In this document: positions 7,174-49,295 of the stretch, in pieces | Numbering within the stretch: the first letter of the stretch is position 1 | Layout of the letters: every line of letters starts with the position of its first letter | DNA from: Candidatus Woesearchaeota archaeon | GTDB lineage: Archaea > Nanobdellota > Nanobdellia > SCGC-AAA011-G17 > GW2011-AR20 | DNA: 64,000 bases | NCBI GenBank assembly: GCA_964419925.1 | Contig: CAYQPR010000002.1 | Coordinates: 2,002-66,001 of the forward strand | Reading direction: 5' to 3' | Made by a program: the position numbers and the translations under genes | The notes under the pieces: generated by a model | Seen by the model: only the letters and a program-made list of their open reading frames with translations | Told to the model about the DNA's origin: nothing | The model's database searches: none

Positions 7174-8466
7174 TTAAGGAACATATCTTAGCATCGTTCT
7201 AGGGTAAGGTATTGCATCCTTGATATTGTCTAAACCACAAATCCAAGATATAATTCTTTCAACACCCATTCCAAATCCACCATGAGGAACACTTCCATAT
7301 TTTCTTGTATCCAAATAAAATTCATAATTCTTTGGATTTTCTCCCTGCTCTTTTAATCTAGAAATTATTTTATCTTTATCGGGCTCTCTTTCACTTCCAC
7401 CTATAATCTCACCATAACCTTCAGGAGCAATAAAATCACAACCAAAAACAACTTTCGTATCTTTTGGATCTTCTTTCATATAAAATGCTTTAACAACTTT
7501 AGGATAATGTGTTACAATTATTGGAGTATCGTATAACTTACTTAATTCATCCTCTTCAATTGTCCTTAAATCTTTTCCCCAATCAATTTTGATTTTACAT
7601 TTTTCTTTTAATATTTTTAAAGCATCAGTATAAGTCATTCTTGGAAAAGGTTTTTTTAATATTGGTTCCAATTTCTTAACATCTCTTTCTAAAAGTTTCA
7701 ATTCTTCTTTATTATTTTCCAAAACTTCTTTAACAATATTTTTAATTAAATTTTCGCCATGATCTTGAATATCTTTAAAGGAAGCCCAAGCCTGTTCCAT
7801 TTCAGCATGCCAGTACTCCGTCAAATGTCTAGACGTCTTAGATTTTTCAGCTCTAAAACTTGGTGCGATGCAATACACTTTTTCTAAAGCAAAAATAGCT
7901 GGCTCAGCATACAACTGCCATGTTTGTGCCAAAAATAATTTTTTTCCAAAATAATCTACATTAAATAGCGTGCTTCCACCTTCACACTGAACACTTTGTA
8001 TTATGGGACTTTGAAATTCATAAAAACCTTCATTTCTAAAATAATCATGTATTGCTTTAAAAATAGTACTCCTTATCTTTAATATAGAGGTCATCTTTCT
8101 GCTTCTTAACCATAGATGTCTATTATCTAATAATAGTTCAGGACTTTGATCTTTATTTATTGGAAATATCTCTGCAAATTGAATAACATTTATTTTACTA
8201 ACCTGAATTTCATATCCTGTTGGAGCTCTTTTATCTTCCTTTATTTCTCCTTCAATTTCTAAAGAGCTTTCAATTAAAATTTTATTAGAATCTTCCCATT
8301 CTTTCTTTGTAACTTTATCTTGTTTAATTACACATTGAATAATATTTGTAGAATCTCTAACCACTAAAAAAATCATGTCTTTCTGTTTTCTTTCACGATG
8401 AACCCATCCGTGAATACTTACATTACCTTTTCCCTTTTCAATTGCTTCTTGTATTTGAATAAACAT
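7174..8466 (-). CDS. asnS: asparaginyl-tRNA synthetase (class IIb)
   Basis: N-terminal OB anticodon-binding domain (GWVHRER). Class II motifs FRAE...RHLTEYWHAE and GGSER are present. The HLTE(F/Y) region favours AsnRS over AspRS. Confidence 0.65.
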   Translation of the reverse strand: MFIQIQEAIEKGKGNVSIHGWVHRERKQKDMIFLVVRDSTNIIQCVIKQDKVTKKEWEDSNKILIESSLEIEGEIKEDKRAPTGYEIQVSKINVIQFAEIFPINKDQSPELLLDNRHLWLRSRKMTSILKIRSTIFKAIHDYFRNEGFYEFQSPIIQSVQCEGGSTLFNVDYFGKKLFLAQTWQLYAEPAIFALEKVYCIAPSFRAEKSKTSRHLTEYWHAEMEQAWASFKDIQDHGENLIKNIVKEVLENNKEELKLLERDVKKLEPILKKPFPRMTYTDALKILKEKCKIKIDWGKDLRTIEEDELSKLYDTPIIVTHYPKVVKAFYMKEDPKDTKVVFGCDFIAPEGYGEIIGGSEREPDKDKIISRLKEQGENPKNYEFYLDTRKYGSVPHGGFGMGVERIISWICGLDNIKDAIPYPRTMLRYVP

Positions 8467-9417: not shown

Positions 9418-10695
9418 TTATGGTGTTAACCTATCTCGATCCCTTGCAAACAAAACCGCTTCCCTAATATTATCTAACTTTAATAATGTCATAGTAAATC
9501 TTTCTAAACCAATTGACCATCCAGAATGCATCGGAGCTCCTGTTCTAAAGCTATCAACATAAAATTCAAAATTATCCGGATTTAATTTTTTATCTTTTAA
9601 TTGTTTTATTAAAATCTCGGGAATGTGAACGCGTTGTCCTCCAGAACTTATTTCAACTCCACCATACAAAGCATCAAATCCCTTACTCAACCTCTCTCTT
9701 TTATCTAAACTTTTTGGAAAAATATAGAATGGTTTTAATGTAGAAGGCCAAGAATGGGTAAATACAATCATATCCGGATACATTTCACATAATTTTCTTT
9801 CAGATTCAGGTGTAAAATCTTCTCCAATTTTTAAACCAACAAGTTTAATTGCTTCATCATAACTTAAGTATTTTGCTTTTGGAATTTTCAATTTTAAATT
9901 TAAATTTTCTAATTCATCTTTACATTTTTCAATTACATTTTTAACAATAAATGCAACACAATCTTCTAAATATTTCATAACTTTAAAATCATCTGCAAAG
10001 GCAACTTCAATATCCATTTGTCTTGATTCATTCAAGTGTCTTATTGTATTATGTTTCTCCGCTCTCCAAACGGGAGTTATTGTAAATACCCTTTCTAAAG
10101 AAATTGCACATAATTGTTTATATAATTGAGGACTTTGTGCTAGATAAGCTTTTTTCTCAAAATACTTAACTTCAAATAACTCAGTTCCACCCTCGGAAGC
10201 ACTTGCAATAATGCTTGGAGGTTGTATCTCAATAAAATTTAATTTTCTAAAAAATTCTCTAAAAGAACTTGAAATTTCGCTTTGAATTTTAAATATTGCC
10301 TTAACCTTTTTCTTCCTTAAATCTAAACTCCTATGTTCTAATCTCGTGCTTAAATCAGTAATGATATCTTTATCTTTTTCATAAACTTGTATTGGAAGAT
10401 TTTCAGCCTTATTCAATAACTCTAATTCATCAACACTGATTTCAAAATTATTAATTGTTAATTCAGAAGATGTTAATTTAGCTTCTTTTATTTTTCCCCT
10501 AATTGAAATAACACTTTCTAATGTTAATTTCTCATCAAAACCTTTAGCTTCATTTTTTATAACACATTGAACGATTCCAGTTATATCTCTTAAAAGAATA
10601 AACTTGGCTTTGGGTAATTCTCTAATATCATGAACCCAACCTTTCAATAAAACTTCCTTTTTATCTTTAAGTTCATTAACGTAGCTTCTTTCCAT
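9418..10695 (-). CDS. aspS: aspartyl-tRNA synthetase (archaeal type, class IIb)
   Basis: GWVHDIRE OB domain, then WRAEKHNTIRHLNE...DIEVAF and GGQR class II motifs. The HNTxRHLNE region is typical of archaeal AspRS. Confidence 0.7.
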   Translation of the reverse strand: MERSYVNELKDKKEVLLKGWVHDIRELPKAKFILLRDITGIVQCVIKNEAKGFDEKLTLESVISIRGKIKEAKLTSSELTINNFEISVDELELLNKAENLPIQVYEKDKDIITDLSTRLEHRSLDLRKKKVKAIFKIQSEISSSFREFFRKLNFIEIQPPSIIASASEGGTELFEVKYFEKKAYLAQSPQLYKQLCAISLERVFTITPVWRAEKHNTIRHLNESRQMDIEVAFADDFKVMKYLEDCVAFIVKNVIEKCKDELENLNLKLKIPKAKYLSYDEAIKLVGLKIGEDFTPESERKLCEMYPDMIVFTHSWPSTLKPFYIFPKSLDKRERLSKGFDALYGGVEISSGGQRVHIPEILIKQLKDKKLNPDNFEFYVDSFRTGAPMHSGWSIGLERFTMTLLKLDNIREAVLFARDRDRLTP

Positions 10696-13771: not shown

Positions 13772-14622
13772 ATTTTTTTTAATTCAATTAAATCATGTTT
13801 CGCTTTTGGCAGATGCAAACTTCTAACAAAATAATACATTGCAAATAATTCAAAAGCAAAAGGTCCATATCCTAAATACCCTAGAATAGGCATTTCAAAT
13901 ATTTTAAAAAATCCAACAAAAGGAATCTCGTAATACCATTTAACAACCGCATAATAATTCCAAAATTCCCATAAAATTCCACAAACAGTTCCTGCAACAA
14001 ATAGTAATATTGGAATTTTAGTATTCCCATTTTTCCAGTAACTAATAATACTTGGCTGTTTATGTAGATAATTAATCGGATCAAGAATAAAAAAGAAAGC
14101 CATCCAAACAAAAGGGAAAAAATATTTTGGATAAATGATGCTTAACAAAATCATTAAAACTCCAATTAGAGTCATTGAATTTAAAAAAGAAGGTGTAATA
14201 TTACGATGCTTTTTTAATTTAAGTTTATCAAATAGATTAAACGTCTTAAACAATTCATAAGTTTCAATTATCGCAGGAAGAACTGTTGAAAATGCAATCG
14301 TTCTAAAAATATAAAACCTAAACCAAGAAGGTTCAGAATAAAAAGTAGAACTTTGATAGTTCCAATTTCCAGTCTTAAAGTTTATAATCTCAAATAGCCA
14401 CCAAATCAATGCAGATAAGATTAAAGATTTAACAAACTGTTCTTTCCTTGACATTATTAAAGAATGTTCTTTTAATTTGTAAATAATTGCGTCAATTAAT
14501 AAGATATATCCAAACCAAACTATCGGAAAATACCAAGAAGCAAAAGGTTCAATTTTAAGATAAAAATTTAATTCAGTAAATAATATCATTATTATTCCAA
14601 GTAAACCATACCACTTAAACAT
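13768..14622 (-). CDS. polytopic membrane protein of unknown function
   Basis: About eight hydrophobic helices with aromatic-rich loops. Its start/stop overlaps the downstream PAP2-like gene. Confidence 0.5.
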   Translation of the reverse strand: MFKWYGLLGIIMILFTELNFYLKIEPFASWYFPIVWFGYILLIDAIIYKLKEHSLIMSRKEQFVKSLILSALIWWLFEIINFKTGNWNYQSSTFYSEPSWFRFYIFRTIAFSTVLPAIIETYELFKTFNLFDKLKLKKHRNITPSFLNSMTLIGVLMILLSIIYPKYFFPFVWMAFFFILDPINYLHKQPSIISYWKNGNTKIPILLFVAGTVCGILWEFWNYYAVVKWYYEIPFVGFFKIFEMPILGYLGYGPFAFELFAMYYFVRSLHLPKAKHDLIELKKI

Positions 14623-15185
14623 TATATCACCTCTTCAAATCTTTTGCTTATTTTTATACTAACTAAAGCAAGTAAAACTCCAAAAATCAAATCAGCAAGA
14701 TGATGTTGTTTAATGAATAACGTTGAAACCAAACTAAAGATCATTAAAGGAGCAAGTTGGTAAGCCAATTTTTTTTTATATTGAAAGATTAAAATAAAGG
14801 AGAGGGTAAGTAATGTAGCATGCAAACTTGGAAATAGATTATATTGAAGGTCTAGAGAATGGATAAGATTTATCAAATAGTTGCTTAAATTATTATTTTC
14901 TATTAAAGGTCTATAGATACTAGTCGGTAAAAAAATGAAAAAGAAATCAGCAATGATTACCGGAACAGAATAATAGAAAGCTACTTTCTTATTATCCATT
15001 ATAAAAAAAGGTATTAAAATAATAAAAAAATAAGCTAAATAAAAATAAACCATCCAGTTTAAGAAAGGAATTGAGTTTTCAAATGCAAATCCTAAATCAT
15101 AAACTTCTCGGCCATAATTAAATTGGTTAATTACAAAGTAAGTAGAGATTACCACTAAAAAAATAAAAAAGTATTTAAGTTTCAT
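14622..15185 (-). CDS. PAP2-superfamily-like membrane phosphatase
   Basis: Degenerate PAP2 motifs: SIYRPL (KxxxxxxRP-like), FPSLHAT (PSGH-like) and QHHLADLIFG (SRxxxxxHxxxD-like). Confidence 0.45.
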   Translation of the reverse strand: MKLKYFFIFLVVISTYFVINQFNYGREVYDLGFAFENSIPFLNWMVYFYLAYFFIILIPFFIMDNKKVAFYYSVPVIIADFFFIFLPTSIYRPLIENNNLSNYLINLIHSLDLQYNLFPSLHATLLTLSFILIFQYKKKLAYQLAPLMIFSLVSTLFIKQHHLADLIFGVLLALVSIKISKRFEEVI

Positions 15186-15822: not shown

Positions 15823-17229
15823 CTATTTTTTATTTATTAATTCTATTAACTTCTTGCCATCAATTTTACCTTTATATTTTGACATTAACATCCCCATCAA
15901 GGCATTTACGCTTAGTTCTTTATTTTTAGATTTAAGTTCTTTAATTTCTTTTTCAATTTCATTTAAACTAACAGATTTATAATCTTCAAGATTAATTTTT
16001 TCATTTTTACTTAATTTAACAAAAATTTCATTAACAACATCTTTTGTTATTTTACCTTTATCCAATAAATCTAAAACATAATCTAAACGTTTATTATTAA
16101 AATTACTAACTAAAATACTTGCTAATAAACCAGAACTAATCTCATTATACTTTTTAGAATAATCATTAAAATCTATCTTACTATGGATCATTTCAGAAGC
16201 CAGTTCATTACTTAATCCATATCTTTCTTTTAATTTATTTATCTTATCTTCAATCAGTTCAGGGATTTTAACATTCTCCAATAATTCTTTACTAACCTCT
16301 ATAGTTGGAATATCCGTATCCGGGTACATCCTTGCACTTCCGGGCAAAGGTCTCAAAAATGAGGTTGTCCCGTTTTCATTCGCCTTTCTTACCTCTTCTT
16401 CAACTTTTTTATCTTTTTCAACTAAACTAAACTGCCTTTGAATTTCATAATCAATTATCTTAGGCATTGTTCTTAAATCCTGAAAACCTTTTATCTCAAC
16501 CCTTGATCCATCTAAAATACTTAAATTAACATCCTGTCTTATTGTTCCAATTCCCCTTAAAATATCAGAAAAACTTCTTAAGATCATTCCTAATTTTTCA
16601 GCAGTTTCCTTTGCACCATCAGGGGTTTTAATGTCTGGCTTAGTCATTATCTCAATTAAAGGAATTCCCTGCCTTGATAAAGAATAATAAGTTTTATTTT
16701 CTTCATTTTTCTCAATTTTACATGCATCTTCCTCTAAACATAGACTTGCAATCTTAACCTTTCCAAAAGAAGTTTCAATAAACGAATCTTCACTTTCATA
16801 ACCAACTAACATTGTTCTTTGAAAAGCGCTACAAGCACTCCCATCCGTAATTATCTTTCTCATAACATAAATTTCTTTAGGAATGTTTAATCTAAACAAT
16901 TTAGCTAAAGATAAAGCCGTAACTAGTGCATCTTGATTAACCTGATATGGTGGCTGTTCATCACAATCGACTAAACAATATTCTCCTTTATAACCGTGAT
17001 AAATAAAATCTTTATTTTTAGATTCTTCAAATTTAGCTGCAACATCAACTTTTCCAGTTTCACCTGAAGAAGCTCTTAATTTCCTTTTAAATTCGATATC
17101 CAATTCTTTTTCTTCAAATTTAGTAGAGCAGTTGCAGAATAACTTTTTATCTGAAAGTTGCTGATGAATCTCAAGTCCAATCTTCAAGTTTAAATCCTTA
17201 TAGTCAAACATTTTCAATATCCTCATCAA
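15823..17229 (-). CDS. gatE: Glu-tRNA(Gln) amidotransferase subunit E/B-family (GatE-like, short form). The likely start is the Met at 17211.
   Basis: N-terminus YKDLNLKIGLEIHQQL...KLFCNC is the GatB/E signature. It is paired with gatD on the same strand. Confidence 0.7.
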   Translation of the reverse strand: MMRILKMFDYKDLNLKIGLEIHQQLSDKKLFCNCSTKFEEKELDIEFKRKLRASSGETGKVDVAAKFEESKNKDFIYHGYKGEYCLVDCDEQPPYQVNQDALVTALSLAKLFRLNIPKEIYVMRKIITDGSACSAFQRTMLVGYESEDSFIETSFGKVKIASLCLEEDACKIEKNEENKTYYSLSRQGIPLIEIMTKPDIKTPDGAKETAEKLGMILRSFSDILRGIGTIRQDVNLSILDGSRVEIKGFQDLRTMPKIIDYEIQRQFSLVEKDKKVEEEVRKANENGTTSFLRPLPGSARMYPDTDIPTIEVSKELLENVKIPELIEDKINKLKERYGLSNELASEMIHSKIDFNDYSKKYNEISSGLLASILVSNFNNKRLDYVLDLLDKGKITKDVVNEIFVKLSKNEKINLEDYKSVSLNEIEKEIKELKSKNKELSVNALMGMLMSKYKGKIDGKKLIELINKK

Positions 17230-17710
17230 TAATTTTAACTATTTTAGTAATATTATTTACAAAAAGTTTTGCATTTTTTAATGAATCTTCAGCATATTCC
17301 TTATTTGCCTGCGAAATTGTTTGATAAGTAAATAAACCTCTTTTAAATTTCAAATCTTTAAAAATTTCAAGCAAATGATCTGCCCTTATAATCATCTTTT
17401 GATAAATTTCAAGAAGTTTCACATCTATGATTCTGGTCTTAACAAAATTATTATCAAATTCATCATAAGTCTTTTTATGAACTTCAGGAAATGTTGTTTT
17501 AATATCTTTAGTTAATAAAATTGCCTTTGCTGAGTAAAATATCGCATAATAAGAATGAGAAATAACTGCACTGTAAAAACTAATCTCTAAAGGTATTTTC
17601 AAAAATTCTTTTTTCTTGTTATCATTACTTATATCTCTAAGCGTTTCAGCGATTATTAATTCATTTTCAGATCGATCAAGAAAATTTTTTGTTGTTAAAT
17701 CCATTCTCAA
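17204..17710 (-). CDS. HEPN-domain protein (toxin of a HEPN/MNT pair)
   Basis: All-helical 168-aa protein with the ISHSYYAIFYSAKAILL helix typical of HEPN. It overlaps the MNT gene and the gatE start. Confidence 0.55.
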   Translation of the reverse strand: MRMDLTTKNFLDRSENELIIAETLRDISNDNKKKEFLKIPLEISFYSAVISHSYYAIFYSAKAILLTKDIKTTFPEVHKKTYDEFDNNFVKTRIIDVKLLEIYQKMIIRADHLLEIFKDLKFKRGLFTYQTISQANKEYAEDSLKNAKLFVNNITKIVKIIDEDIENV

Positions 17711-18305
17711 TAACCTCTTGCATTAATTTAATATAAATCTGTCCTCCAGTTAATATAATGAAGTTTCTTACTATCCCTTTACCATAATTAGCTTCATTAT
17801 TTAAAAGCATTTCCTTAAACTCAGAATATTTAAAAACATATAAATGTATTTGTGGAATATTCATTTCTGCCTTAAAGGATAGTTCAGCATAAACTCTTTT
17901 AGGTTCAAACAAATCATTGATAAGCACAACAACATCAAGATCAGATGTTTTTGTAAATTTTCCGTTTGCATAACTACCAGTTATAATAAAAACATAATCC
18001 TTATAAGAAATATTGCTCATAAACTCTTGTAAATCTCGATAAGGTAAACTATCCTTATGCCAACCATAATACTCTAAAACAAAACCTGCAAAAATTCTTG
18101 ATTTTACTATAAAATTTAATGAGTAAACCGAGAGATTACCTACTTTTTCTAATAGTAATATTTTTTCTTTTAATAAATTCTTAATTACCTTATCAACATA
18201 GCTTTTTGATTTCTTTTTTGAAGAATTTTTTAATTCTGTAAAAGTATATTTTTTCCAAGGTTCTTTTGCAAATAAATATAATAATTCTGAATCTTTTTTT
18301 AGCAT
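17676..18305 (-). CDS. minimal nucleotidyltransferase (MNT) with N-terminal winged-helix domain (antitoxin partner of HEPN)
   Basis: GSYANGKFTKTSDLDVVVL is the GS...DxD polymerase-beta-type nucleotidyltransferase motif. It overlaps the HEPN gene. Confidence 0.7.
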   Translation of the reverse strand: MLKKDSELLYLFAKEPWKKYTFTELKNSSKKKSKSYVDKVIKNLLKEKILLLEKVGNLSVYSLNFIVKSRIFAGFVLEYYGWHKDSLPYRDLQEFMSNISYKDYVFIITGSYANGKFTKTSDLDVVVLINDLFEPKRVYAELSFKAEMNIPQIHLYVFKYSEFKEMLLNNEANYGKGIVRNFIILTGGQIYIKLMQEVIENGFNNKKFS

Positions 18306-21787: not shown

Positions 21788-22150
21788 TTATTTTACAAAT
21801 TCTACATTCTTCATACTTTTGAATTCCTTATCTCCAGTTAAGAATTTCATTTCATTTTCTGTAGCAATAATATATCCCAAAGCATCAACATATGAAATAT
21901 TATTTTTCTTATTCTTTAATTTAAAATCTGAGGCTAAAAAAATCCATTCATCTTTTATTCTAATCAACAAAGAATAAAAAGTATAAAAAACTTCTTTAGC
22001 TTTATTTCCATCATTCTCTTTTAATATATTATAATATAGTTCATATAAATTAAGCAATGTTGTAAAAACCTCGTGATCAAGATATTTTTTATAACTTTCA
22101 TTGCCCTTAACAATCTCAATCAAAGCATAAGTATCAAGAAAGAATCTCAT
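21788..22150 (-). CDS. vapC: PIN-domain toxin VapC
   Basis: FFLDTYALIE (first catalytic Asp) ... VDALGYIIATENEMKFLTGDKEF. The start overlaps the vapB stop (ATGA). Confidence 0.75.
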   Translation of the reverse strand: MRFFLDTYALIEIVKGNESYKKYLDHEVFTTLLNLYELYYNILKENDGNKAKEVFYTFYSLLIRIKDEWIFLASDFKLKNKKNNISYVDALGYIIATENEMKFLTGDKEFKSMKNVEFVK

Positions 22151-22362
22151 TTAGTCCACTCCTTTCTTAATTCATCCTTTACATCTTGAGCGTTAATCTT
22201 CCATTTTTTTAAAAGCCCAAATGCATTTTTAACAAGAATCTTTTTTCTCAATTCAAACATCACTTCTTCACCAGGTTTTAAATTTTCTCTGACCATAATC
22301 TCTCGAGGAACCACTATTCCAAATGAATTTCCCCACCTTTTCAATTTAGTTCTGAATTCCAT
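22147..22362 (-). CDS. vapB: AbrB/SpoVT-type antitoxin VapB
   Basis: KRWGNSFGIVVPREI swapped-hairpin barrel motif. 71 aa, directly upstream of vapC. Confidence 0.75.
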   Translation of the reverse strand: MEFRTKLKRWGNSFGIVVPREIMVRENLKPGEEVMFELRKKILVKNAFGLLKKWKINAQDVKDELRKEWTK

Positions 22363-23905: not shown

Positions 23906-24943
23906 ATGAAGGTATTAAACAAAAACGAATTTAAAGAAAAGATCGATTTAGATCTTAAAGATAAAAAAATTCTAAAATTATTAAGTATAAATTCAAGATT
24001 TCCATTAACTAAAATCTGTAAATATATAAGGTTAACAAGAGATGCAGTAAATTATAGAATAAAGGGGTTGGAAGAGAAAAATATAATAACTGGATACAGA
24101 ACTTTAATTAATTTAAAAAAACTAGGCTATTCCTCTTATCATATTTTTATAGAATTACATCCAAATCGTGAAAAAGAAAAAGAGTTAATTGATTTTTTTA
24201 AAAAAAATGAAAATATAAATGCAATAATAAAATATTCTGGAAAATTAGACTATGAAATAGCCTTAGTTTGTAAAACATTTGAAGAATTTGATAACGTCTT
24301 TAATAAAATAATCAATAAATATGAAGTTAAAAACTATGAAATCCTAATAATATTAAATACAATAAAGAGTTCATCATTTCCAGAAAGTTTATTGAATGAA
24401 AAGATACCTATTGAAAATAAAAAAAATGACGGAAGTTTTTTTAAAAATTTTATCAATGCAAAAAACACAGATTTTAAACTAGATAAGGCCGATATAAAAA
24501 TTCTTAATCTAATTTCAAATGATGCAAAAATCTCTTTAACCGAATTAAGCAAAAATACAAGCTTGAGCTTGGATGTAATTTCTTATAGAATTAAGAAAAT
24601 GATAGAAAGTAAAATAATTCTCGAATTCCGTCCAGTAATAAATTACAATAATTTAGGTTTTTCAGTTTATACACTTTTATTAAGTTTACAAAATCTAAAC
24701 GATAAAAAAGAAATCGAACTTATTGAATTTTTTAAAAACAATAAGAATATTTTATGGGGTGTTAAAACAATAGGCAAATGGAACCTATTAATATATATTC
24801 TAACAAAAGACGAGCAAGAGTTTCATTCAACAATTTCAGAAATTAAAAATAAATTTTCAAGCATAATCAAAACATATGAAACACTATTAGCAGATGAGGA
24901 ATACAAATACACTTATTTCCCGGAAGTTTTAAGTAAAATCTAG
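23906..24943 (+). CDS. tandem-duplicated Lrp/AsnC-family transcriptional regulator (two HTH + RAM-like repeats in one chain)
   Basis: Repeat 1 is KKILKLLSINSRFPLTKICKYIRLTRDAVNYRIKGLEE. Repeat 2 is IKILNLISNDAKISLTELSKNTSLSLDVISYRIKKMIE. Confidence 0.6.
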   Translation: MKVLNKNEFKEKIDLDLKDKKILKLLSINSRFPLTKICKYIRLTRDAVNYRIKGLEEKNIITGYRTLINLKKLGYSSYHIFIELHPNREKEKELIDFFKKNENINAIIKYSGKLDYEIALVCKTFEEFDNVFNKIINKYEVKNYEILIILNTIKSSSFPESLLNEKIPIENKKNDGSFFKNFINAKNTDFKLDKADIKILNLISNDAKISLTELSKNTSLSLDVISYRIKKMIESKIILEFRPVINYNNLGFSVYTLLLSLQNLNDKKEIELIEFFKNNKNILWGVKTIGKWNLLIYILTKDEQEFHSTISEIKNKFSSIIKTYETLLADEEYKYTYFPEVLSKI

Positions 24944-25860
24944 TTTTTCTTCAAAACCTCAACAATTTTACAAGTCTGACAAATTTCTTGAGAACACGGT
25001 TCACCACAGGATTTACATTCTTTTAAAGATGTAATATTTTTATAATTTTCTTTTAATAAAGGTAATAATTCCAAAAAACTAGTTATAATACTATGTTTAG
25101 TACCAGGGTATTTTGATTCAAAACTATTCAAAAGATCTCTAACATCTCCACGATAAGCATCTGTGTTGTAAGGACATTCTTTAAAATCTGGAATTAATTT
25201 TTTTAAAAAAGCATAAGTAGCAACCTCTTTTTCGGTCATTAAATACAAAGGCTTTATTCTCCTAACAAATTTCTTATCGTTTACAATTCCAGTAATCGGT
25301 CCAAGTCTAGCCGAAGTTTCTAAATTCCTTCTAAAATAATTCATCATTATTGTCTGAGATTCATCATCTAGATTATGTCCAGTAGCTAATTTAGTGAATC
25401 CTAATTCTTTTGATTTTTTATTTAAAATATATCTTCTAAAAGGCCCGCACATTGAGCAAGCTTTCATTTTACTTTTTTTAAGAAAATTATCTAGAGTATT
25501 CCCAAATTCTTCTTTATATGAAAAGATACTTAATTTAATATTATTTTCTTTGCAGAATTTTTTAGCATTTTCTAAAGTCTCATCCCTATATCCTTTAATC
25601 CCTTCGTTTACAGCAATTGCTTCCAAAGTAAATCTTCTTGTTTTACTCTTTAAATCATTTAAAATATTTAAAACAGTTAAAGAATCTTTTCCACCAGAAA
25701 CGGCAACTCCAATTTTATCATTTTTATCAATTAGTTTATATTTTCTAATTAAATTCAAAACTTTTTTCTCAAAGTATTTAATAAAATGCTGCTTACATAG
25801 TTGGATATTCACATTTGTAAGTTTTATTACAGGATTATCTAAACAATTCTTGCACACCAT
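24940..25860 (-). CDS. ncsA: PP-loop ATPase of the NcsA/TtuA/TtcA tRNA-thiolation family
   Basis: SGGKDS PP-loop, N-terminal CxxC...C and C-terminal CKSCGEPCSQEICQTC zinc/Fe-S cysteines. Confidence 0.75.
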   Translation of the reverse strand: MVCKNCLDNPVIKLTNVNIQLCKQHFIKYFEKKVLNLIRKYKLIDKNDKIGVAVSGGKDSLTVLNILNDLKSKTRRFTLEAIAVNEGIKGYRDETLENAKKFCKENNIKLSIFSYKEEFGNTLDNFLKKSKMKACSMCGPFRRYILNKKSKELGFTKLATGHNLDDESQTIMMNYFRRNLETSARLGPITGIVNDKKFVRRIKPLYLMTEKEVATYAFLKKLIPDFKECPYNTDAYRGDVRDLLNSFESKYPGTKHSIITSFLELLPLLKENYKNITSLKECKSCGEPCSQEICQTCKIVEVLKKN

Positions 25861-25943
25861 ATTAATATGGATTGTATATCATTTATAAAGATAATTTATT
25901 CTAAATTAGATAATTTTATAAAAGTTTTAGTATTATCAATTCA

Positions 25944-27047
25944 ATGAGTGATAAAGTGTTAAATGAAGAACTCGTTCTTGAACATGCCTTTGAAATTAAG
26001 AAGGTTAAACACAATTATAGTCCTGAAGAAAAACTTATAGTAGATCGTGCAAATGCAATTTTAAGTTATAGAAATGGTATTGTTAGAAATTTAGAAGATT
26101 ATGTTGAATCATTACTAAAGACAAGGTTAAATGAAGTCGGTAATGAAAGAAACTGGCAACCCTCTGATTTTTTACCTGATTTTTCATTAGGAAATTGGAA
26201 ACAAGAAGTTGAAAGACTTCAAAAACAATCCAAAGGAATATCCGATGAATTAATGGTAGTATTGATTGGAAATTTAGTAACAGAAGAAGCACTTCCAACT
26301 TATCAGACATTTCTTAATAAATTTGATGGCATTAAAGATTTGACCGGAGCACAGAACACTGCTTGGGCTAAGTGGACAAAGGGTTGGACCGCTGAAGAAA
26401 ATAGACACGGAGATTTACTGCACTGTTATTCATTTTTATCCGGGCGTTTTAATATGAGAACAGTGTATGACACTATTCAACTTTTAATAATGAATGGTTT
26501 TGATGCCGGAGCCGGAGAAGATCCATTTAAAGTATTTGAATATACAAGTTTTCAGGAAAGAGCAACTAGAATTTCTCATACAAATACTGGTAAAATTGCA
26601 AAGCAACAAGGAGATGAATTATTATACAAGATATGTACTATGATTGCTAAAGATGAAACAAGACATGAAAGTTTTTATACTCTCTGTATGAAAAAAATTT
26701 TTGATATAGATCCAAATGGGGCAATGACCTCTTATGCTTGGATGATGAAAAAAAATATATCTATGCCTGCAAAATTAATAAGTGATAATAAGAATCCAAA
26801 TTTGTTTAAAGATTTTTCAGCCGCTGCCGAGCGTGTAGGAGTTTACACAGCAAGAGACTATGCGGAGATAATAAACCATCTAAACAATGAATGGGAAATA
26901 GCTGAAGTAAAGGTAACAACTATAGAAGCAAGTCAAGCTCAAGAATATTTATTAAATCTACCAGAAAGATACTTAAAACTTTCAGATAGAAAAAGAAGTT
27001 CCGAAAGAACATTTGATCCAAAATATTTTTCCTGGTTAAAAAATTAA
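25944..27047 (+). CDS. soluble acyl-ACP desaturase-family di-iron protein (DesA-like)
   Basis: The two di-iron motifs TAEENRHGD and AKDETRHE sit in a ferritin-like four-helix context. Local GC looks slightly above neighbours. Confidence 0.75.
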   Translation: MSDKVLNEELVLEHAFEIKKVKHNYSPEEKLIVDRANAILSYRNGIVRNLEDYVESLLKTRLNEVGNERNWQPSDFLPDFSLGNWKQEVERLQKQSKGISDELMVVLIGNLVTEEALPTYQTFLNKFDGIKDLTGAQNTAWAKWTKGWTAEENRHGDLLHCYSFLSGRFNMRTVYDTIQLLIMNGFDAGAGEDPFKVFEYTSFQERATRISHTNTGKIAKQQGDELLYKICTMIAKDETRHESFYTLCMKKIFDIDPNGAMTSYAWMMKKNISMPAKLISDNKNPNLFKDFSAAAERVGVYTARDYAEIINHLNNEWEIAEVKVTTIEASQAQEYLLNLPERYLKLSDRKRSSERTFDPKYFSWLKN

Positions 27048-27049
27048 AA

Positions 27050-27244
27050 TTAACCACCAGAAATAACACTTAATAATTTTAGTTCATCGCTATCTTTTAA
27101 TTCAGTGTTTTCTAAAATAAGTTCATTGTTTCTTGAAAATAAAACAGTTTCAGAATTAATTTTTAATTTACTTAAAACTTCTTTTGGGTTCTTAGCTTTT
27201 AAATTTATGATTCTATCTTCTTTTTCAATAAAAATTTTAACCAT
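27050..27244 (-). CDS. ThiS/MoaD-like ubiquitin-fold sulfur-carrier protein ending in Gly-Gly. The start is the internal Met MVKIF; the track ORF 27050..27328 is N-extended.
   Basis: C-terminal ...LSVISGG-stop. About 64 aa of beta-grasp size. Its ATG overlaps the stop of the upstream ORF (TATGGTTAA). Confidence 0.65.
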   Translation of the reverse strand: MVKIFIEKEDRIINLKAKNPKEVLSKLKINSETVLFSRNNELILENTELKDSDELKLLSVISGG

Positions 27245-27572
27245 AATAAATAACCTCTGATTCAATTGGAGTCTTAGAAGAATCTTGTAAAAATAATTTA
27301 TTTTCTGGAATTTCATTTTTAAGATCAAGTTCTAAAAAACAATAAGAGGGGATTTTTAATTTATTGTTTTCAAAAGAACAACCAACCGAGTTAATTCTTA
27401 AATAATAAAAAGTATGATTAATATGGTTTTTTATGAATTCTAAAGAAATGGGGGTTTTTCTATATAAAGTGTATTCGTCTCCGTTAAATCCAAAAGGTTC
27501 GCCTTCAATATTAACTACATCACCTAAATTAAGTAAATTATTTACAGATTTATTTTTATTTAATTCGTCCAT
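27237..27572 (-). CDS. hypothetical protein, translationally coupled to the Ubl gene
   Basis: 111-aa ORF with no motif. It sits between the ThiI-like and Ubl genes. Confidence 0.45.
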   Translation of the reverse strand: MDELNKNKSVNNLLNLGDVVNIEGEPFGFNGDEYTLYRKTPISLEFIKNHINHTFYYLRINSVGCSFENNKLKIPSYCFLELDLKNEIPENKLFLQDSSKTPIESEVIYYG

Positions 27573-29553: not shown

Positions 29554-31440
29554 ATGAGTTTTAAAGACCTAATTAAAGTAATTAAGAAATATAATCCTGA
29601 ATCAAACATTGAGCTAATAATGAAAGCTTACAGTTTTGCTTCAAAAAAACATCTTAAACAAATTAGAGAATCAGGACATCCTTACATTACCCATCTTGTT
29701 GGAGCTGCTGGAATCTTAGCCAACTTAAAAACAGATGACGAAACAATTGCAGCTTGCTTATTGCACGATACCTTAGAAGATACGAATACAGCCGAAGAAG
29801 AATTAAAAGAAAATTTTGGAGAGGATATTCTAAATCTAATAAAAGGAGTCACAAAAATTAGTAAATTAGTTCTTCCAGATTTTAAAGAAAGACAAGTAGA
29901 GAGTATAAGAAAAATGTTAATTGCAAGCACAAAAGATATTCGAGTTATTTTAATAAAATTAGCCGATAGATTAAACAACATGTATTCTCTTAAATATTTT
30001 CGTGAAGAAAAACAAAAAAGAATAGCAAAAGAAACATTAGAAATTTATGCGCCTTTAGCTTATAGGTTAGGTTTGTTTAATATAAAATGGCAGTTAGAGG
30101 ATTTATCTTTTAGATATTTAGAACCTAAAATTTATCAAGAAATAAAATCAAAAGTTGTTAAAACAAGAAATGAAAGGGAATCAGAGATTAAAAAGATTAA
30201 ATCAATAATAGAAAGAGAGTTAGCAAAACGCAATATAAATGCACAAGTATTTGGAAGAGCAAAAAGTTTCTACAGTATTTACAAAAAAATAACTGAAAGA
30301 AATAAAACAATAGAAGGTATGTATGATTTAATTGCATTAAGGATATTGGTAGAAAAAAAACAACAATGTTATGAAGTTTTAGGAATAATTCATAATTTGT
30401 TTAAACCTGTAGAAGGGAAGATTCAAGATTATATTGCAAACCCAAAACCAAACATGTACCAAAGCTTACATACAATTATTCTTTACAATGAAGATCAAGT
30501 AGAAATCCAAATATTAACAAAAGATATGCATTTGATAAATGAAGAAGGAATTGCGGCACATTGGAGATATAAAGATAAAAAATCTATAAATGATCCTGAA
30601 TTTGAGAAAAAGTTAGGATGGATTAAAGAAGTAATTAACCTAAAATCAAATATGGGAGAAGATTTTCTTGAAAGATTAAAGATTGATTTATTTTTAGACC
30701 ATATCTTTGTTTTTACTCCAAAAAATGATATTGTTGAGCTTCCAAAAGGAGCGACATTACTTGATTTTGCCTATGCCGTACATAGTGATTTAGGAAATTC
30801 ATGTATAGGTGGAAAAGTAAATGATAAATTTGTAAATTTAAAGCACGAACTAAAAAATACTGACCAAGTTGAGATATTAGTTTCAAAAAATCAAAAACCG
30901 AGCAGAGAATGGTTAAAATTTGTTATTTCTCAAAGAACAAAGGAAAAAATTGCACACTATTTAAGAATGCAAAATGAAATTCCAATATCAAATCTAAGAA
31001 AGATGATTAATGAAAAAAATAGTTTAATAAAAAGCGAAACAAAGTCAACTTTTATTAAGATTTCCGAATGTTGTGACCCAATTCCAAATGATCCGATTAT
31101 TGGATTAAGCACAAAAAATAACAAAATTACAGTGCATAAAACAAATTGTAGCAAACTAAATACATTTAGCTTAAAAAAAGTAAAAGTATTTTGGAATGAT
31201 GAAATTGGGTTAACCGTAAATATCAAAGTTATAGCTTCAGATAGATTAGGGTTATTTGCAGACGTTTTAAAAAATATATCTTCATTATATCTAAACATTG
31301 AAAAAGCAAGTGCAAAAACAATCAATAAAGAATTAGGAGAATGCAACATTAAAATTAAAGTAAATTCTTTAGAAGATATAAAAAAAATTGTTGATCAAAT
31401 AAAAAAAATAAATGATGTTAGAAAAGTTAGTTTGAGTTAA
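29554..31440 (+). CDS. long RelA/SpoT homolog (HD hydrolase + (p)ppGpp synthetase + TGS + ACT)
   Basis: HD motif HPYITHLVGAAGILA...LLHDTLEDT. Synthetase motif RAKSFYSIYKKI...YDLIALRILV. TGS IFVFTPKNDIVELPKGATLLDFAYAVHSDLG. C-terminal ACT-like region. Confidence 0.85.
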   Translation: MSFKDLIKVIKKYNPESNIELIMKAYSFASKKHLKQIRESGHPYITHLVGAAGILANLKTDDETIAACLLHDTLEDTNTAEEELKENFGEDILNLIKGVTKISKLVLPDFKERQVESIRKMLIASTKDIRVILIKLADRLNNMYSLKYFREEKQKRIAKETLEIYAPLAYRLGLFNIKWQLEDLSFRYLEPKIYQEIKSKVVKTRNERESEIKKIKSIIERELAKRNINAQVFGRAKSFYSIYKKITERNKTIEGMYDLIALRILVEKKQQCYEVLGIIHNLFKPVEGKIQDYIANPKPNMYQSLHTIILYNEDQVEIQILTKDMHLINEEGIAAHWRYKDKKSINDPEFEKKLGWIKEVINLKSNMGEDFLERLKIDLFLDHIFVFTPKNDIVELPKGATLLDFAYAVHSDLGNSCIGGKVNDKFVNLKHELKNTDQVEILVSKNQKPSREWLKFVISQRTKEKIAHYLRMQNEIPISNLRKMINEKNSLIKSETKSTFIKISECCDPIPNDPIIGLSTKNNKITVHKTNCSKLNTFSLKKVKVFWNDEIGLTVNIKVIASDRLGLFADVLKNISSLYLNIEKASAKTINKELGECNIKIKVNSLEDIKKIVDQIKKINDVRKVSLS

Positions 31441-42334: not shown

Positions 42335-42898
42335 ATGAAAAAATCTTATTATTTTATTGGGATTTTATTTTTAATAGTCTCGTTTATTTTTGATAAACAA
42401 ATCTCTATCTTTTTTACAAGTTATAGAAATCCAATTTTAAGTTCAATTTCAATTTTTATTGATGGATTTAAATGGTATTACTTGTTTGGAATTGTGTTAT
42501 TAATTTTATTATTAAGAAAAGAATACAAAAAACTTCCATCTTTAGTTTTGTCATTAATTTTATATTTATTTATTGTAAATGGTCTTAAAATCTTATTTTC
42601 TAGAGAAAGGCCATTTGTTAATTTAAAAAATGAATTAGTTGAAACAACAAACCCTTATAGAAGTTTTCCAAGTGGTCATGCAACCTCAATGTTTGTCTTG
42701 CTCCCCTTTCTTAACTTTTTTTATGGTTTCTGGTTTATATTAAGTATCGTTGTTGCATTTTCAAGAGTTTATCTAGGAGTTCATTACTTAAGTGATATTA
42801 TTGGAGGTGCTTTGTTAGGATTTTTAATACAAGATTTAAGTGAATTCTTAATGATTAGAGCTCAGAAAAGTAAAATTTTTACTCACCGAAAGGTTTAA
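42335..42898 (+). CDS. PAP2-family membrane phosphatase (polyprenyl/dolichyl diphosphate phosphatase-like)
   Basis: KILFSRERPF (KxxxxxxRP), SFPSGHAT (PSGH) and SRVYLGVHYLSD (SRxxxxxHxxxD). Confidence 0.8.
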   Translation: MKKSYYFIGILFLIVSFIFDKQISIFFTSYRNPILSSISIFIDGFKWYYLFGIVLLILLLRKEYKKLPSLVLSLILYLFIVNGLKILFSRERPFVNLKNELVETTNPYRSFPSGHATSMFVLLPFLNFFYGFWFILSIVVAFSRVYLGVHYLSDIIGGALLGFLIQDLSEFLMIRAQKSKIFTHRKV

Positions 42899-46007: not shown

Positions 46008-46733
46008 GTGGAATTAAAAGAAAGGATAAAAAACCATTCATTGTATAAGAAGACATTAGAAAATAGATATTTAGCAATATTTCTACTATTAGTGATAATT
46101 CTAATGACTTACAGTTATTTTAAAGAAGGAATCGTTTATCAAATAAGCGATGTAAATCTAGAGGGGGTTAAAAATTTTATTAATTCATTTGGAAATTTTT
46201 CATGGATAATTTATGTTCTTACTTTAATTTTAATATCAATATTTCCAGTTCCATCAACAATAATTAATGTTGCAGGAAGTTTATCTTTTGGGCCATTAAA
46301 TGCAGTATTTTTAACATTAATTGGAGCAGTTTTAGGAAACAGTATTGATTACTTCATTGCAAGAAGATATGGGTATGAGCACATTAAACAAATTATTAAT
46401 GAGAAAAGAAGAGAAAAATTTGATGATTACTCTAAAAAATATGGTTATTTGGTGTTGTTCATTTTAAGATTAAATCCCTTAACATCAACAGATATTTTTA
46501 GCTATTTATCGGGGTTAATTGGAATGCCATTTAAAAAATTTTTACTCAGTACCATTTTTGGAATACTTCCGGGGATTATTTTTGTCTCTTATTTTGGAAG
46601 TAGATTTATAAATGATAATAAACTATTTAGATTAACATTTGTTATTATAACGATGTTTTATGCATTAATAATGGTTTATTTGATTTTAAGATTTTTAAAA
46701 AAGAAAGTTAAAGAAAGATTTGTTAAGAAATAA
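46008..46733 (+). CDS. DedA/TVP38 (SNARE-associated) family membrane protein. Possible GTG start.
   Basis: FPVPSTIINVAGSLSFGP...GAVLGNSIDYFIARRYG is the DedA signature. Confidence 0.65.
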   Translation: MELKERIKNHSLYKKTLENRYLAIFLLLVIILMTYSYFKEGIVYQISDVNLEGVKNFINSFGNFSWIIYVLTLILISIFPVPSTIINVAGSLSFGPLNAVFLTLIGAVLGNSIDYFIARRYGYEHIKQIINEKRREKFDDYSKKYGYLVLFILRLNPLTSTDIFSYLSGLIGMPFKKFLLSTIFGILPGIIFVSYFGSRFINDNKLFRLTFVIITMFYALIMVYLILRFLKKKVKERFVKK

Positions 46734-46842: not shown

Positions 46843-47661
46843 TTATAGGGAATTAATATCAAGAATACCTTTTAATAACTTTCGTCTTTGTTCTAAGGTG
46901 GTGTGTATTGGGCAGAATCCAAACCTCTTCCATACAAAATATTTGCTGTAATGTTTTGGGTTGCTAAACCCAATAATGGTAATCCATTTTTCCAAATTTT
47001 TCTTGCCAACAATCACAACACGATAATGTTTAAACACCCTATTATTTCGCTTACGTTTTCCTTTCTCTAAATAACTATGTATTCCCAACTTGTTTAATAA
47101 CACCTTTAACTGTTTTGTTAATTTCTCTGAGGCAAATTGACCTCCAATTAATGGGTAATGATGTTTCTTAAATTTGGTATCTTTTCTTATTTTAAACACC
47201 AAATAAAAATCCGTATCAGCAATTCCCCTAATTAATGCAGAAATAATTTTATTATCCTTAGTTTCAAAAAAATATTTGGGTATTTTATAAGAATTATCCA
47301 ATTTATTTCCAGGTGTATATTTCATATTTTTAACGAAAAAATTAATTATAGATTTAGAGGTTACACAGATTTTTATTCCATTTGTTCCAGAAATTTTACG
47401 AATATATGGCCTTACGTTAAAAAGATTGTAAAATAAATCTGATATTATAATGTTATGATAATCTAAATCTTCTTGAGCATGTCCGTATACAAATAACTCA
47501 TATTTTCTTCTGTTAGATGGTTTTTCTTTTAAATGGATGCACCCGTCTCCAATCATTAAACCAAATAATTCTGCCAAATCAGAAGTTAATTTATTAGGCA
47601 AATGAACATCTCTTTTTATATCTGAATTACTGAATGAAATTTTTGAGTTATCAAATATCAT
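46843..47661 (-). CDS. double-motif LAGLIDADG homing endonuclease, free-standing
   Basis: Motif 1 LAELFGLMIGDGCI and motif 2 ISALIRGIADTDFY. 272 aa. A TATA-like TTTATAA lies about 30 nt upstream. The ORF ends exactly where the tRNA gene begins. Confidence 0.75.
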   Translation of the reverse strand: MIFDNSKISFSNSDIKRDVHLPNKLTSDLAELFGLMIGDGCIHLKEKPSNRRKYELFVYGHAQEDLDYHNIIISDLFYNLFNVRPYIRKISGTNGIKICVTSKSIINFFVKNMKYTPGNKLDNSYKIPKYFFETKDNKIISALIRGIADTDFYLVFKIRKDTKFKKHHYPLIGGQFASEKLTKQLKVLLNKLGIHSYLEKGKRKRNNRVFKHYRVVIVGKKNLEKWITIIGFSNPKHYSKYFVWKRFGFCPIHTTLEQRRKLLKGILDINSL

Positions 47662-47760
47662 TTTTATATCAAAAATCTCTTCTTACTTATAAAGTTGACC
47701 CGCGAGGTTGTCACTTGGACAGTTGGGAAAAAATGTATATTTTAAAGAATATAAATAAAA

Positions 47761-47835
47761 CGGGCCTGATGGGATTTGAACCCACGATCTTCAGCTTAGA
47801 AGGCTGACATCCAATCCAGGCTAGACGACAGGCCC
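47761..47835 (-). tRNA. tRNA-Arg (anticodon TCT), no intron
   Basis: Acceptor GGGCCTG/CAGGCCC. Anticodon arm TCAGC-CTTCTAA-GCTGA. T-arm GTGGG-TTCAAAT-CCCAT. Discriminator G. Confidence 0.75.
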
Positions 47836-47879
47836 ATAATAAAAACCACCTCTATGAAGATATTTAAACCTTTTCAAAA

Positions 47880-48554: not shown

Positions 48555-49295
48555 ATGAAAAAAGAAAACTATACTTTTGTTGATATGCATGTTCATTCTA
48601 ATTACTCTTTAGATTCTTCAAATAAAATAAAAAATATTATTGAAAAAGCAAGAGAAAAAAATATAGGAATTTCTATAACCGACCATAATGAAATTGAAGG
48701 ATGTTTAGAGGCTTCAAAATATGATATCTTTCTGATTCCTGGAATAGAAATAACCTGTATGGAAGGTTGCCATATCCTAGTTTATTTTTATAAAATAAAA
48801 GACTTAGAAAGATTTTTCAATAAAGAAATAAAGAATAATATGTATAATAAAATGAGAACAAAGATACCTCAAGAAAACCTAATAGAAATAACAAATAAAT
48901 ACGAATGTTTGGTTAGTGCCGCACATCCATTTGGAGCCGGAAATTCTGGAATTTATAAATTAAAAAGATATAAGGATATGGAGACATTAGAGGGATTAAA
49001 CTCGGCTTTGACAAAAAATAAAAATAGTAAAACAATTTCTTTACGAAAAAAATTTTATACTGCAGGAAGCGACGCACATATAATCTCACATATCGGAAAA
49101 GGACTAGTTGGAGTAAAGGCAAGTAATGTAAAAGATTTTCTCAAAGGAATAAAGAATAATAAAAATATAATTAGAGGAAGGGAAATAAGTTTAATTGAAC
49201 AGATAAAACTGAATTTATTTAAAGAATTTTCTTTAATTAAAAAAATGAAATTAAAAGATTTTATAAATAACAGATTAATTCATATAATAAAATGA
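48555..49295 (+). CDS. PHP-domain phosphoesterase
   Basis: FVDMHVHSNYSLDSS...ISITDHNEIEG and later AAHPFG / GSDAHI are PHP metal-binding His/Asp motifs. Confidence 0.65.
   Translation: MKKENYTFVDMHVHSNYSLDSSNKIKNIIEKAREKNIGISITDHNEIEGCLEASKYDIFLIPGIEITCMEGCHILVYFYKIKDLERFFNKEIKNNMYNKMRTKIPQENLIEITNKYECLVSAAHPFGAGNSGIYKLKRYKDMETLEGLNSALTKNKNSKTISLRKKFYTAGSDAHIISHIGKGLVGVKASNVKDFLKGIKNNKNIIRGREISLIEQIKLNLFKEFSLIKKMKLKDFINNRLIHIIK

Follow-up and report, generated by a model that had tools for sequence, protein, structure and literature searches.

The 64,000-nucleotide (nt) stretch of contig CAYQPR010000002.1 (assembly GCA_964419925.1) analyzed here, hereafter the window, encodes a soluble desaturase of the acyl-acyl carrier protein (ACP) type that is real, selected, and horizontally acquired in a DPANN archaeon. 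The gene represents a known family in an unusual host and not a new kind of system, and the chemistry of the enzyme is expected to be conventional. Isoprenoid ether membranes are among the traits that define archaea, most of which lack ACP-based fatty-acid metabolism, and DPANN archaea are generally unable to make their own lipids. A literature search for acyl-ACP desaturases or the Pfam family PF03405 in archaea or DPANN returned nothing relevant, and with this gene the few bacterial fatty-acid genes seen in DPANN are joined by a new enzyme class. The reading that we favor, with a probability of about 0.6, is that it encodes a competent desaturase of bacterial origin that was transferred via a clade of homologs (hereafter, clade X) into a variable slot, was ameliorated, came under selection, and would adjust acyl saturation. 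Coordinates of this gene and of the other features discussed below are collected in Table 1.

Family membership and di-iron site

The gene is an unbroken open reading frame (ORF) of 367 codons with an ATG start. Its product matches the Pfam profile FA_desaturase_2 (PF03405) over the full length of the profile (residues 45–364 on profile positions 4–323 of 325) with 405.2 bits, compared to a cut-off of 22.7 (E = 2e-121). The best match among solved structures is the castor stearoyl-ACP Δ9 desaturase (1oq4; E = 2.3e-97; residues 16–365), followed by the ivy Δ4 enzyme and then the Thunbergia Δ6 enzyme, with E values of about 1e-97 to 1e-88 across the set. Castor RcSAD1 (PDB 1afr, 1oq4, 2xz0/2xz1, 4v0j), ivy Δ4-16:0 (2uw1), and Thunbergia Δ6 (7pp7/7t63) desaturases are 44–50% identical to the window protein across the whole mature enzyme. 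Its length is also near that of the plant enzyme (367 vs. 363 amino acids [aa]), including an N-terminal region that is absent from most bacterial homologs; unlike the plant enzymes, the window protein has no transit peptide and its host is archaeal.

Uncharacterized bacterial acyl-ACP desaturase homologs (from the FCB and PVC groups, Latescibacterota, Gemmatimonadota, and Elusimicrobiota) are 45–52% identical to the window protein and share the PF03405 architecture, but they are shorter at the N-terminus (about 320–345 aa) and belong to hosts with ordinary type II fatty-acid synthesis. Mycobacterium tuberculosis DesA1 and DesA2 have the superfamily and the di-iron four-helix bundle in common with the window protein, but the relation is distant: DesA2 (PDB 1za0) gave a partial alignment of 115 residues (E = 2.1e-5), with 16% identity and a TMq (template-modeling [TM] score) of 0.52 in the fold comparison. 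An earlier annotation made from the letters alone (hereafter, the sequence-only reading) had assigned the protein to the stearoyl-ACP desaturase family based on its EENRHG and DETRHE motifs. Both motifs are present, and the PF03405 and castor matches bear out the family; the DesA-type label attached to it did not survive the comparison, because the plant and FCB/PVC type is far closer. At the sequence level, the protein truly belongs to the soluble stearoyl-ACP-type desaturases and groups with the plant and FCB/PVC enzymes, not with mycobacterial DesA; it is predicted to be catalytically competent.

Iron ligands were mapped on an alignment of 191 sequences using castor numbering. All six (E114, E152, H155, E205, E238, and H241, equivalent to castor E105, E143, H146, E196, E229, and H232) are invariant in this alignment, and the translation includes EENRHG (residues 151–156) within WTAEENRHGDLL and DETRHE (residues 237–242) within IAKDETRHESFY. 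Second-shell residues W71, W148, T208, H212, and D237 are likewise conserved and identical to castor W62, W139, T199, H203, and D228. The AlphaFold2 model, built from a 57-sequence alignment, has a mean predicted local distance difference test score (pLDDT) of 94 and a predicted TM score (pTM) of 0.92, and it has the same fold as the castor enzyme (Foldseek vs. 4v0j_B: E = 5e-26, TMt 0.94, root-mean-square deviation [rmsd] 1.4 Å). The next fold class, which comprises R2lox and ribonucleotide reductase (RNR) R2, stays at a TM score <0.5 in the same search. Ligand loss, which had been named as the mark of a non-enzymatic relic, was not observed; the full set of ligands and the confident fold therefore argue that the protein is, structurally, not a relic.

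Residues around the substrate channel differ from those of the castor enzyme. In the alignment, T104, L108, and Y111, which line the channel, are conserved and the residues at its bottom are bulkier (K126, F127, V197, and F123), such that castor M114/T117/L118/P179/G188 correspond to F/K/F/A/V in the window protein. At castor T117, L118, and G188 (K126, F127, and V197 here), the clade X consensus is R, variable, and L, respectively. Arg is the majority state (58%) at position 117 in bacterial homologs, in which Arg/Lys also predominates, and position 188 is Gly in bacterial homologs vs. Leu/Val in clade X. Castor D280 is replaced by K289 in the window protein, and the ivy Δ4 enzyme also has Lys at this position. 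In the castor enzyme, D280K moves regioselectivity from Δ9 to Δ4 (PMC8456182), T117R or D280K singly lead to diol formation, and the T117R/G188L/D280K variant makes allylic alcohols (PMC4396352; PMC8940945). By analogy, the bulky channel bottom (K126, F127, and V197) suggests an acyl chain of C16 or shorter, and K289 suggests that the double bond may be introduced at a position other than Δ9. Three further differences were found: castor D101 is Asn in the window protein (D in 80% of non-clade-X sequences), the castor E233 position is Phe in most of clade X, and the N-terminal extension of clade X forms two confident helices (residues 8–21 and 27–48) in the AlphaFold2 model.

Host organism and lipid context

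The exact desaturase protein (P0001) is encoded on an ENA/NCBI contig of 92.4 kb, ~52 kb from its start. The window has a guanine plus cytosine (GC) content of ~27.6% and encodes GatD, GatE, FtsZ, aTrm56, and SecDF. The same contig carries an exosome operon (two RNase PH subunits, Rrp41/42, plus Rrp4), SBDS, proteasome alpha, RNase P Rpp14, Rpb6, the ribosomal proteins L1, L10, and P1, and Nre. For its leucyl-tRNA synthetase (LeuRS), the nearest named relative is a ‘Nanoarchaeota archaeon’ protein (75% identity), followed by proteins from metagenome-assembled genomes (MAGs) of Woesearchaeota, Aenigmarchaeota, and Pacearchaeota. Because archaeal informational and processing genes are present on the contig and the nearest relatives are DPANN, the host is a DPANN archaeon (Nanoarchaeota in the sense of GTDB).

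CarS and a CDP-alcohol phosphatidyltransferase, which the sequence-only reading had placed in the same window, were both located. The lipid genes of the window are those of late or remodeling steps (two PAP2 phosphatases, a DedA/VTT-domain protein, a PgsA-like CDP-alcohol transferase, and CarS), and no geranylgeranylglyceryl phosphate (GGGP) synthase, digeranylgeranylglyceryl phosphate (DGGGP) synthase, or glycerol-1-phosphate (G1P) dehydrogenase was visible in the 76 kb of contig examined. A lipid gene set limited to late and remodeling steps fits a lipid-scavenging lifestyle.

The contig does carry archaeal lipid head-group genes. The premise that an ACP-type gene would be isolated in archaea, however, proved weaker than it had been put: a published survey already reported FabG, FabI, FabZ, and a cyclopropane-fatty-acid synthase from MAGs of DPANN (Zhang et al. 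2024, PMC10936187). These genes share with the window desaturase the theme of bacterial fatty-acyl genes in DPANN, their nearest relatives are other DPANN and then bacteria, and the paper mentions no desaturase (0 occurrences). Because Fab genes are reported there (PMC10936187), a fatty-acyl substrate in DPANN cells is credible and the surprise of finding the gene is lowered. Gene proximity does not bear on the matter: an ACP gene was found within 10 kb of the desaturase in 0 of ~110 loci, bacterial ones included, and because the bacterial loci also lack one, the absence of ACP near the window desaturase is uninformative.

A variable slot in a tRNA-thiolation cluster

The desaturase gene is alone on the plus strand within a minus-strand tRNA-thiolation cluster (PP-loop/TIGR00269, ThiS, ThiI, ASCH, and ThiF). 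A desaturase with 74% identity was also recovered from a second sample, on a contig of 2.4 kb (L087), where it is again flanked by PP-loop and ThiS and all three genes are oriented as in the window. Because this independent assembly has the gene in the same position, the locus is not an assembly artifact.

To the window PP-loop protein, the closest homologs in the database are 81–82% identical, compared to 80% for that of L087, and their genomic regions are syntenic (ThiF, ThiI, ThiS, PP-loop, methyltransferase, NT5C, FtsZ, GatD, GatE, and RelA/SpoT). The slot between ThiS and PP-loop contains no desaturase in these relatives: one group (L092:3728-5967; also L093–L097) carries a 583-aa B12-type radical-SAM/DUF4070 gene with a 144-aa ORF, and another (L098:4567-4857; also L099–L101) just a 96-aa ORF. 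In every case, the cargo and the thiolation genes are on opposite strands. The radical-SAM protein shows a weak likeness to B12-dependent methyltransferase and ‘lipid biosynthesis B12-binding/radical SAM’ models, all far under the cut-offs. Because equally close relatives carry other cargo in the same slot, the acquisition is lineage-specific; the ThiS/PP-loop gap accepts varying insertions, among which the desaturase is particular to one lineage. Between ThiS and ThiI, there is an orphan ORF of 111 aa without a Pfam or NCBIfam match. It is a second small lineage-specific insertion, because ThiI and ThiS are directly adjacent in L092 and L098.

The intergenic region that separates the divergent PP-loop and desaturase genes contains a 59-nt core that is 100% identical to L087, whereas the three flanking coding regions are 78–80% identical at the DNA level. 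Two TATA-like boxes were found in the core (TTTATAAA at ~25883 and TTTTATAAAA at ~25915), each ~25 nt before a start codon, together with a 7-nt inverted repeat (TAATTTA-TTC-TAAATTA) and a direct repeat, AGATAATTT(T)AT. We infer from these elements that the core holds putative archaeal promoters and a possible regulator site, and it may be a regulatory element common to both divergent genes.

A tandem double Lrp/AsnC-type regulator of 345 aa is encoded two genes from the desaturase. Its distant homolog (L090:1490-2458, minus strand; 22% identity, E = 3e-23), which has a weak likeness to archaeal Lrp, LysM, and LrpA (NCBIfam), is at the same two-gene distance from the clade X desaturase in L090/L091, and the desaturase-less relatives L092 and L098 have no double Lrp/AsnC regulator at the syntenic place. 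The regulator may be dedicated to the desaturase.

Composition and selection

The gene had been described as slightly GC-richer than its neighbors. Numerically this holds (31.9% vs. 27.6% for the window), but the difference is not significant (z = 1.4 among 50 ORFs) and FtsZ reaches 37%; as with FtsZ, the excess reflects the amino acids of which a conserved enzyme is made. GC at third codon positions (GC3; 0.194, against 0.180 on average) does not stand out either (z = 0.58), and synonymous codons are chosen as is typical for the window (z = −0.72). A GC or codon anomaly as evidence of transfer is ruled out by these three scores, so that the hint of foreignness drawn from GC fails, and the evidence for transfer comes from phylogeny and the slot that varies in close relatives. 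The gene has either ameliorated or come from a donor of similar composition.

Comparison of the window and L087 copies yielded a ratio of nonsynonymous to synonymous substitution rates (dN/dS) of 0.22 for the desaturase, which points to purifying selection, and ~0.09 for the PP-loop gene. For a separate, more recent history of the desaturase cassette relative to its flanks, there is no clear signal: the proportions of synonymous differences (pS) are 0.46 (desaturase), 0.65 (PP-loop), and 0.36 (ThiS) with overlapping intervals.

Phylogeny and distribution of clade X

Phylogenetic position was determined in a 191-sequence tree and in a 277-sequence tree rooted with distant family members. The window protein pairs with P0002 (bootstrap 100) within clade X, which comprises 18 clusters and has bootstrap values of 100 and 98 in the two trees, respectively. 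In the rooted tree, clade X lies inside a radiation of Bacteroidota, Ignavibacteriota, Latescibacterota, Planctomycetota, Verrucomicrobiota, and Gemmatimonadota together with the plant enzymes, and the bacterial homologs described above make up the bulk of it. The comparison with bacterial and plant enzymes that the sequence-only reading had called for thus places the clade within their radiation. Midpoint rooting, in contrast, splits clade X from all other sequences. Signature residues of the clade (N70, F244, T262, Y264, N314, and V324-T325-T326) are absent from the bacterial homologs. The clade accounts for a single 50%-identity representative among 1.84 billion proteins, compared to 1450 for the whole family at E ≤ 1e-3. 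Among GTDB species genomes, the best 80 of 593 matches are all bacterial (≤51% identity) and include no archaeal carrier, the window's own genome not being among them. Because the gene is patchy at the syntenic site and its phylogeny is discordant with that of the host, we conclude from sequence comparison that the window desaturase was probably acquired horizontally.

Clade X genes have 32–39% GC in every host, and because of this the clade is seen as living mainly in low-GC organisms and moving between domains; its original home would be either archaeal or an unsampled low-GC bacterial group. The window and L087 carriers are DPANN. One further context (L003) looks archaeal, based on NOG1, a TIGR00375/MJ0043-family protein, and TrmB, and further copies exist on L090/L091 (29% GC) and L088/L089. 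A clade-specific DNA pattern recovered three short clade X contigs from JGI metagenomes (L102, L105, and L108), whose uninformative neighbors encode a Tag glycosylase, a Ser/Thr kinase, and an integrase fragment. A viral vector was considered and ruled out, with relatives in IMG/VR just 29–36% identical.

One clade X copy (P0121; L002:9850-11100) belongs to a flagellated bacterium (flagellin and FrdABCD present; GCA_004124295.1, contig SCKI01000003.1), where it is located between OsmC and the fumarate-reductase operon in a neighborhood that is alike in four assemblies. The gene has 38% GC (dip of 35–43%) vs. ~57% for its flanks, the sharp dip spans exactly the gene, and the protein is nested deep within clade X. 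The pattern suggests that the gene arrived very recently from a low-GC donor, which may have been an archaeon; no paper mentioning this assembly was found in the literature searched. The presence of clade X in archaea and of a fresh island in a high-GC bacterium makes it a candidate for inter-domain traffic in the less common direction.

Proposed function and alternative explanations

Under the favored reading, the gene would come ultimately from the bacterial radiation, via the low-GC clade X, and would not be ancestral archaeal equipment. Insertion on the opposite strand of the ThiS/PP-loop slot would have occurred in one groundwater-type Nanoarchaeota (DPANN) lineage, and full amelioration, an archaeal-style conserved promoter, and purifying selection would have followed. 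As in characterized relatives, the enzyme would consume O2 together with two electrons supplied by a reduced ferredoxin-type donor, and it would remove two hydrogens from a saturated fatty-acyl chain held on a phosphopantetheine thioester, giving a cis-monoene. If an ACP is encoded in the genome, the chain would be carried as acyl-ACP, and otherwise as acyl-coenzyme A (CoA). A carrier-free route is chemically plausible because stearoyl-CoA is also a substrate of the castor enzyme, though a slower one than stearoyl-ACP (PMC8940945). The likely role would be to tune the saturation of fatty-acyl chains that this tiny, symbiotic-type archaeon with a reduced genome either makes with other bacterial-type genes or takes from partner cells. 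Both roles put forward in the sequence-only reading, desaturation of scavenged host fatty acids and an unrelated di-iron oxidase function, are thus still candidates. An intact, selected desaturase that is predicted to be O2-dependent implies that the host cells meet oxygen and handle fatty-acyl thioesters, and it offers a concrete, easily expressed protein for asking whether DPANN remodel scavenged lipids.

Several observations weigh against this reading. Both trees were inferred by neighbor joining, and the sister group of clade X has bootstrap values <20, which makes the donor lineage and the direction of transfer tentative. An archaeal context is apparent for at least three clade X contigs, and the copy in one bacterium is clearly an import, so the clade could be centered on archaea. 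No genes for ACP, Fab, Pls, acyl-CoA/ACP synthetase, or ferredoxin were found in the ~76 kb of contig examined, a negative that carries no information given the lack of a nearby ACP gene in bacterial loci as well. Castor K56, K60, and K230, which we take to be part of the ferredoxin-binding surface, are N63, R69, and T239 in the window protein, i.e., K56 and K230 are not kept; position 230 is Ala in 90% of bacterial homologs. Finally, the suggested chain length and regiochemistry are borrowed from plant mutants at ~50% identity.

Doubts about whether the gene is authentic and alive can largely be set aside. The family is overwhelmingly bacterial and plant and the gene is on the strand opposite to all of its neighbors, as might be expected if bacterial sequence had been misjoined to an archaeal contig by chimerism or contamination; however, archaeal markers lie on both sides of the gene ~52 kb into the 92-kb contig, the three-gene arrangement was assembled independently in the L087 sample, GC3 and codon usage are native, and the spacing is tight (an 83-nt promoter region on one side and 2 nt to the ThiS stop on the other), so that a misjoin is effectively refuted. 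A decaying, non-enzymatic relic of an old transfer is largely refuted as well. Its dN/dS exceeds that of the neighboring PP-loop gene and no partner genes are visible in the 76 kb of contig, but the full-length ORF, the intact ligands and second-shell residues, the confident fold prediction, and purifying selection with a conserved promoter region are not what a relic would show.

More weight is due to the idea that the desaturase scaffold serves a different chemistry or substrate in this archaeon, such as hydroxylation, diol or allylic-alcohol formation, isoprenoid or ether-lipid oxidation, or carrier-free action on free or lipid-bound acyl chains, although we consider it unlikely. The host makes CDP-archaeol-type lipids (CarS), no fatty-acid genes are visible nearby, and the residues K126, V197, and K289 occupy castor positions 117, 188, and 280, at which mutants form allylic alcohols or diols; the Asn at castor D101, the Phe at E233 in most of clade X, and the extra, confidently folded N-terminal helices of the clade also fit. 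Against this, Arg at position 117 is the bacterial majority state and so is not diagnostic, and the protein is ~50% identical to true desaturases with an rmsd of 1.4 Å. T199, the mutation of which turns the castor desaturase into an oxidase (T199D structure, 2j2f), is invariant, and we know of no desaturase family member that acts on isoprenoids. Quite unlikely, in turn, is an origin within archaea, in which clade X would be an old vertical DPANN lineage that was lost many times and bacteria such as GCA_004124295.1 received the gene from archaea. The uniform GC of clade X genes whatever the host, the 38%-GC island nested deep in the clade in a 57%-GC bacterium, the archaeal contexts of the window, L087, and L003, the fully native codon usage, and the midpoint-rooted tree agree with such a history. 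When distant outgroups are used, however, clade X falls inside the bacterial and plant radiation, the syntenic slot holds no such gene in close relatives of the window organism, the best 80 of 593 GTDB matches include no archaeal genome, and several clade X contexts (L088/L089 and L090/L091) have no domain assigned.

A broader form of this idea, to which we give little credence, is that clade X is a DPANN-centered lineage that acts without a canonical ACP, on acyl-CoA or lipid-linked chains, and was exported from archaea to bacteria, as the 38%-GC island in the 57%-GC bacterial genome would suggest. If true, ultra-small archaea would tune the unsaturation of scavenged or built bacterial-type fatty-acyl lipids, and their membranes would be mixed or remodeled, possibly pointing to bacterial hosts.

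Table 1 Positions of the desaturase gene, its active-site motifs, and other features in the window.
Feature	Position	Strand	Basis or remark
Desaturase gene, 367 aa, clade X member	25944..27047	+	ORF, PF03405, castor match, AlphaFold2 model, Foldseek
E114 codon (castor ligand E105), TEEALP motif	26283..26285	+	Invariant in 191 aligned sequences
EENRHG, residues 151–156; E152 and H155 = castor ligands E143 and H146	26394..26411	+	Translation, ligand mapping
E205 codon (castor ligand E196), SFQERAT motif; T208 (castor T199) follows	26556..26558	+	Both invariant
DETRHE, residues 237–242; D237 = castor D228; E238 and H241 = ligands E229 and H232	26652..26669	+	Translation, ligand mapping
Divergent intergenic region, PP-loop/desaturase, 83 nt	25861..25943	.	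59-nt core at 25876..25934, identical to L087
ThiS/PP-loop slot	25861..27049		
PP-loop ATPase, TIGR00269/NcsA-TtuA-like tRNA thiolation enzyme, left flank	24940..25860	-	Pfam; relatives named TIGR00269 family protein [Nanoarchaeota archaeon]
ThiS-like sulfur carrier, 64 aa, right flank	27050..27244	-	Convergent with desaturase, 2 nt from its stop codon
Tandem double Lrp/AsnC-type regulator	23906..24943	+	
Orphan ORF between ThiS and ThiI	27237..27572	-	
CarS	49777..50298	+	NCBIfam CDP-archaeol synthase equivalog cut-off reached (149.5 vs. 148 bits)
CDP-alcohol phosphatidyltransferase, small, PgsA-like	49292..49789	+	
Lipid-related genes of the window	14622..15185 (-), 42335..42898 (+), 46008..46733 (+), 49292..50298 (+)		
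RelA/SpoT homolog	29554..31440	+	
Toxin-antitoxin-like pairs	17204..18305, 21788..22362	-	
LAGLIDADG-like ORF	46843..47661	-	
tRNA-Arg(TCT)	47760..47836	-	
Asp/Asn-type tRNA synthetases	7174..8466, 9418..10695	-	

Other features of the window

A long, full-length RelA/SpoT homolog (HD, synthetase, TGS, and ACT domains) adjoins the ThiF gene and scores 655 bits against TIGR00691 (cut-off 499). Its place is kept in related Nanoarchaeota contigs (L098:317-2197, L099:710-2590, and L100:664-2586). Enzymes of (p)ppGpp metabolism of the long RelA/SpoT type are generally regarded as bacterial or plastid, and the gene is likely another bacterial import that has been stably retained in this DPANN lineage.

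Two toxin-antitoxin-like pairs, one of HEPN plus a minimal nucleotidyltransferase and the other of PIN plus a MazE-like antitoxin, are inserted amid core genes (GatD/GatE and FtsZ), and L092 and L098 lack the PIN/MazE pair in their syntenic regions. Directly beside the sole tRNA gene of the window is a free-standing LAGLIDADG-like ORF (272 aa, weak Pfam match). Two paralogous class II tRNA synthetases of the Asp/Asn type (430 and 425 aa) are encoded close together and share the contig with the GatD/GatE amidotransferase.

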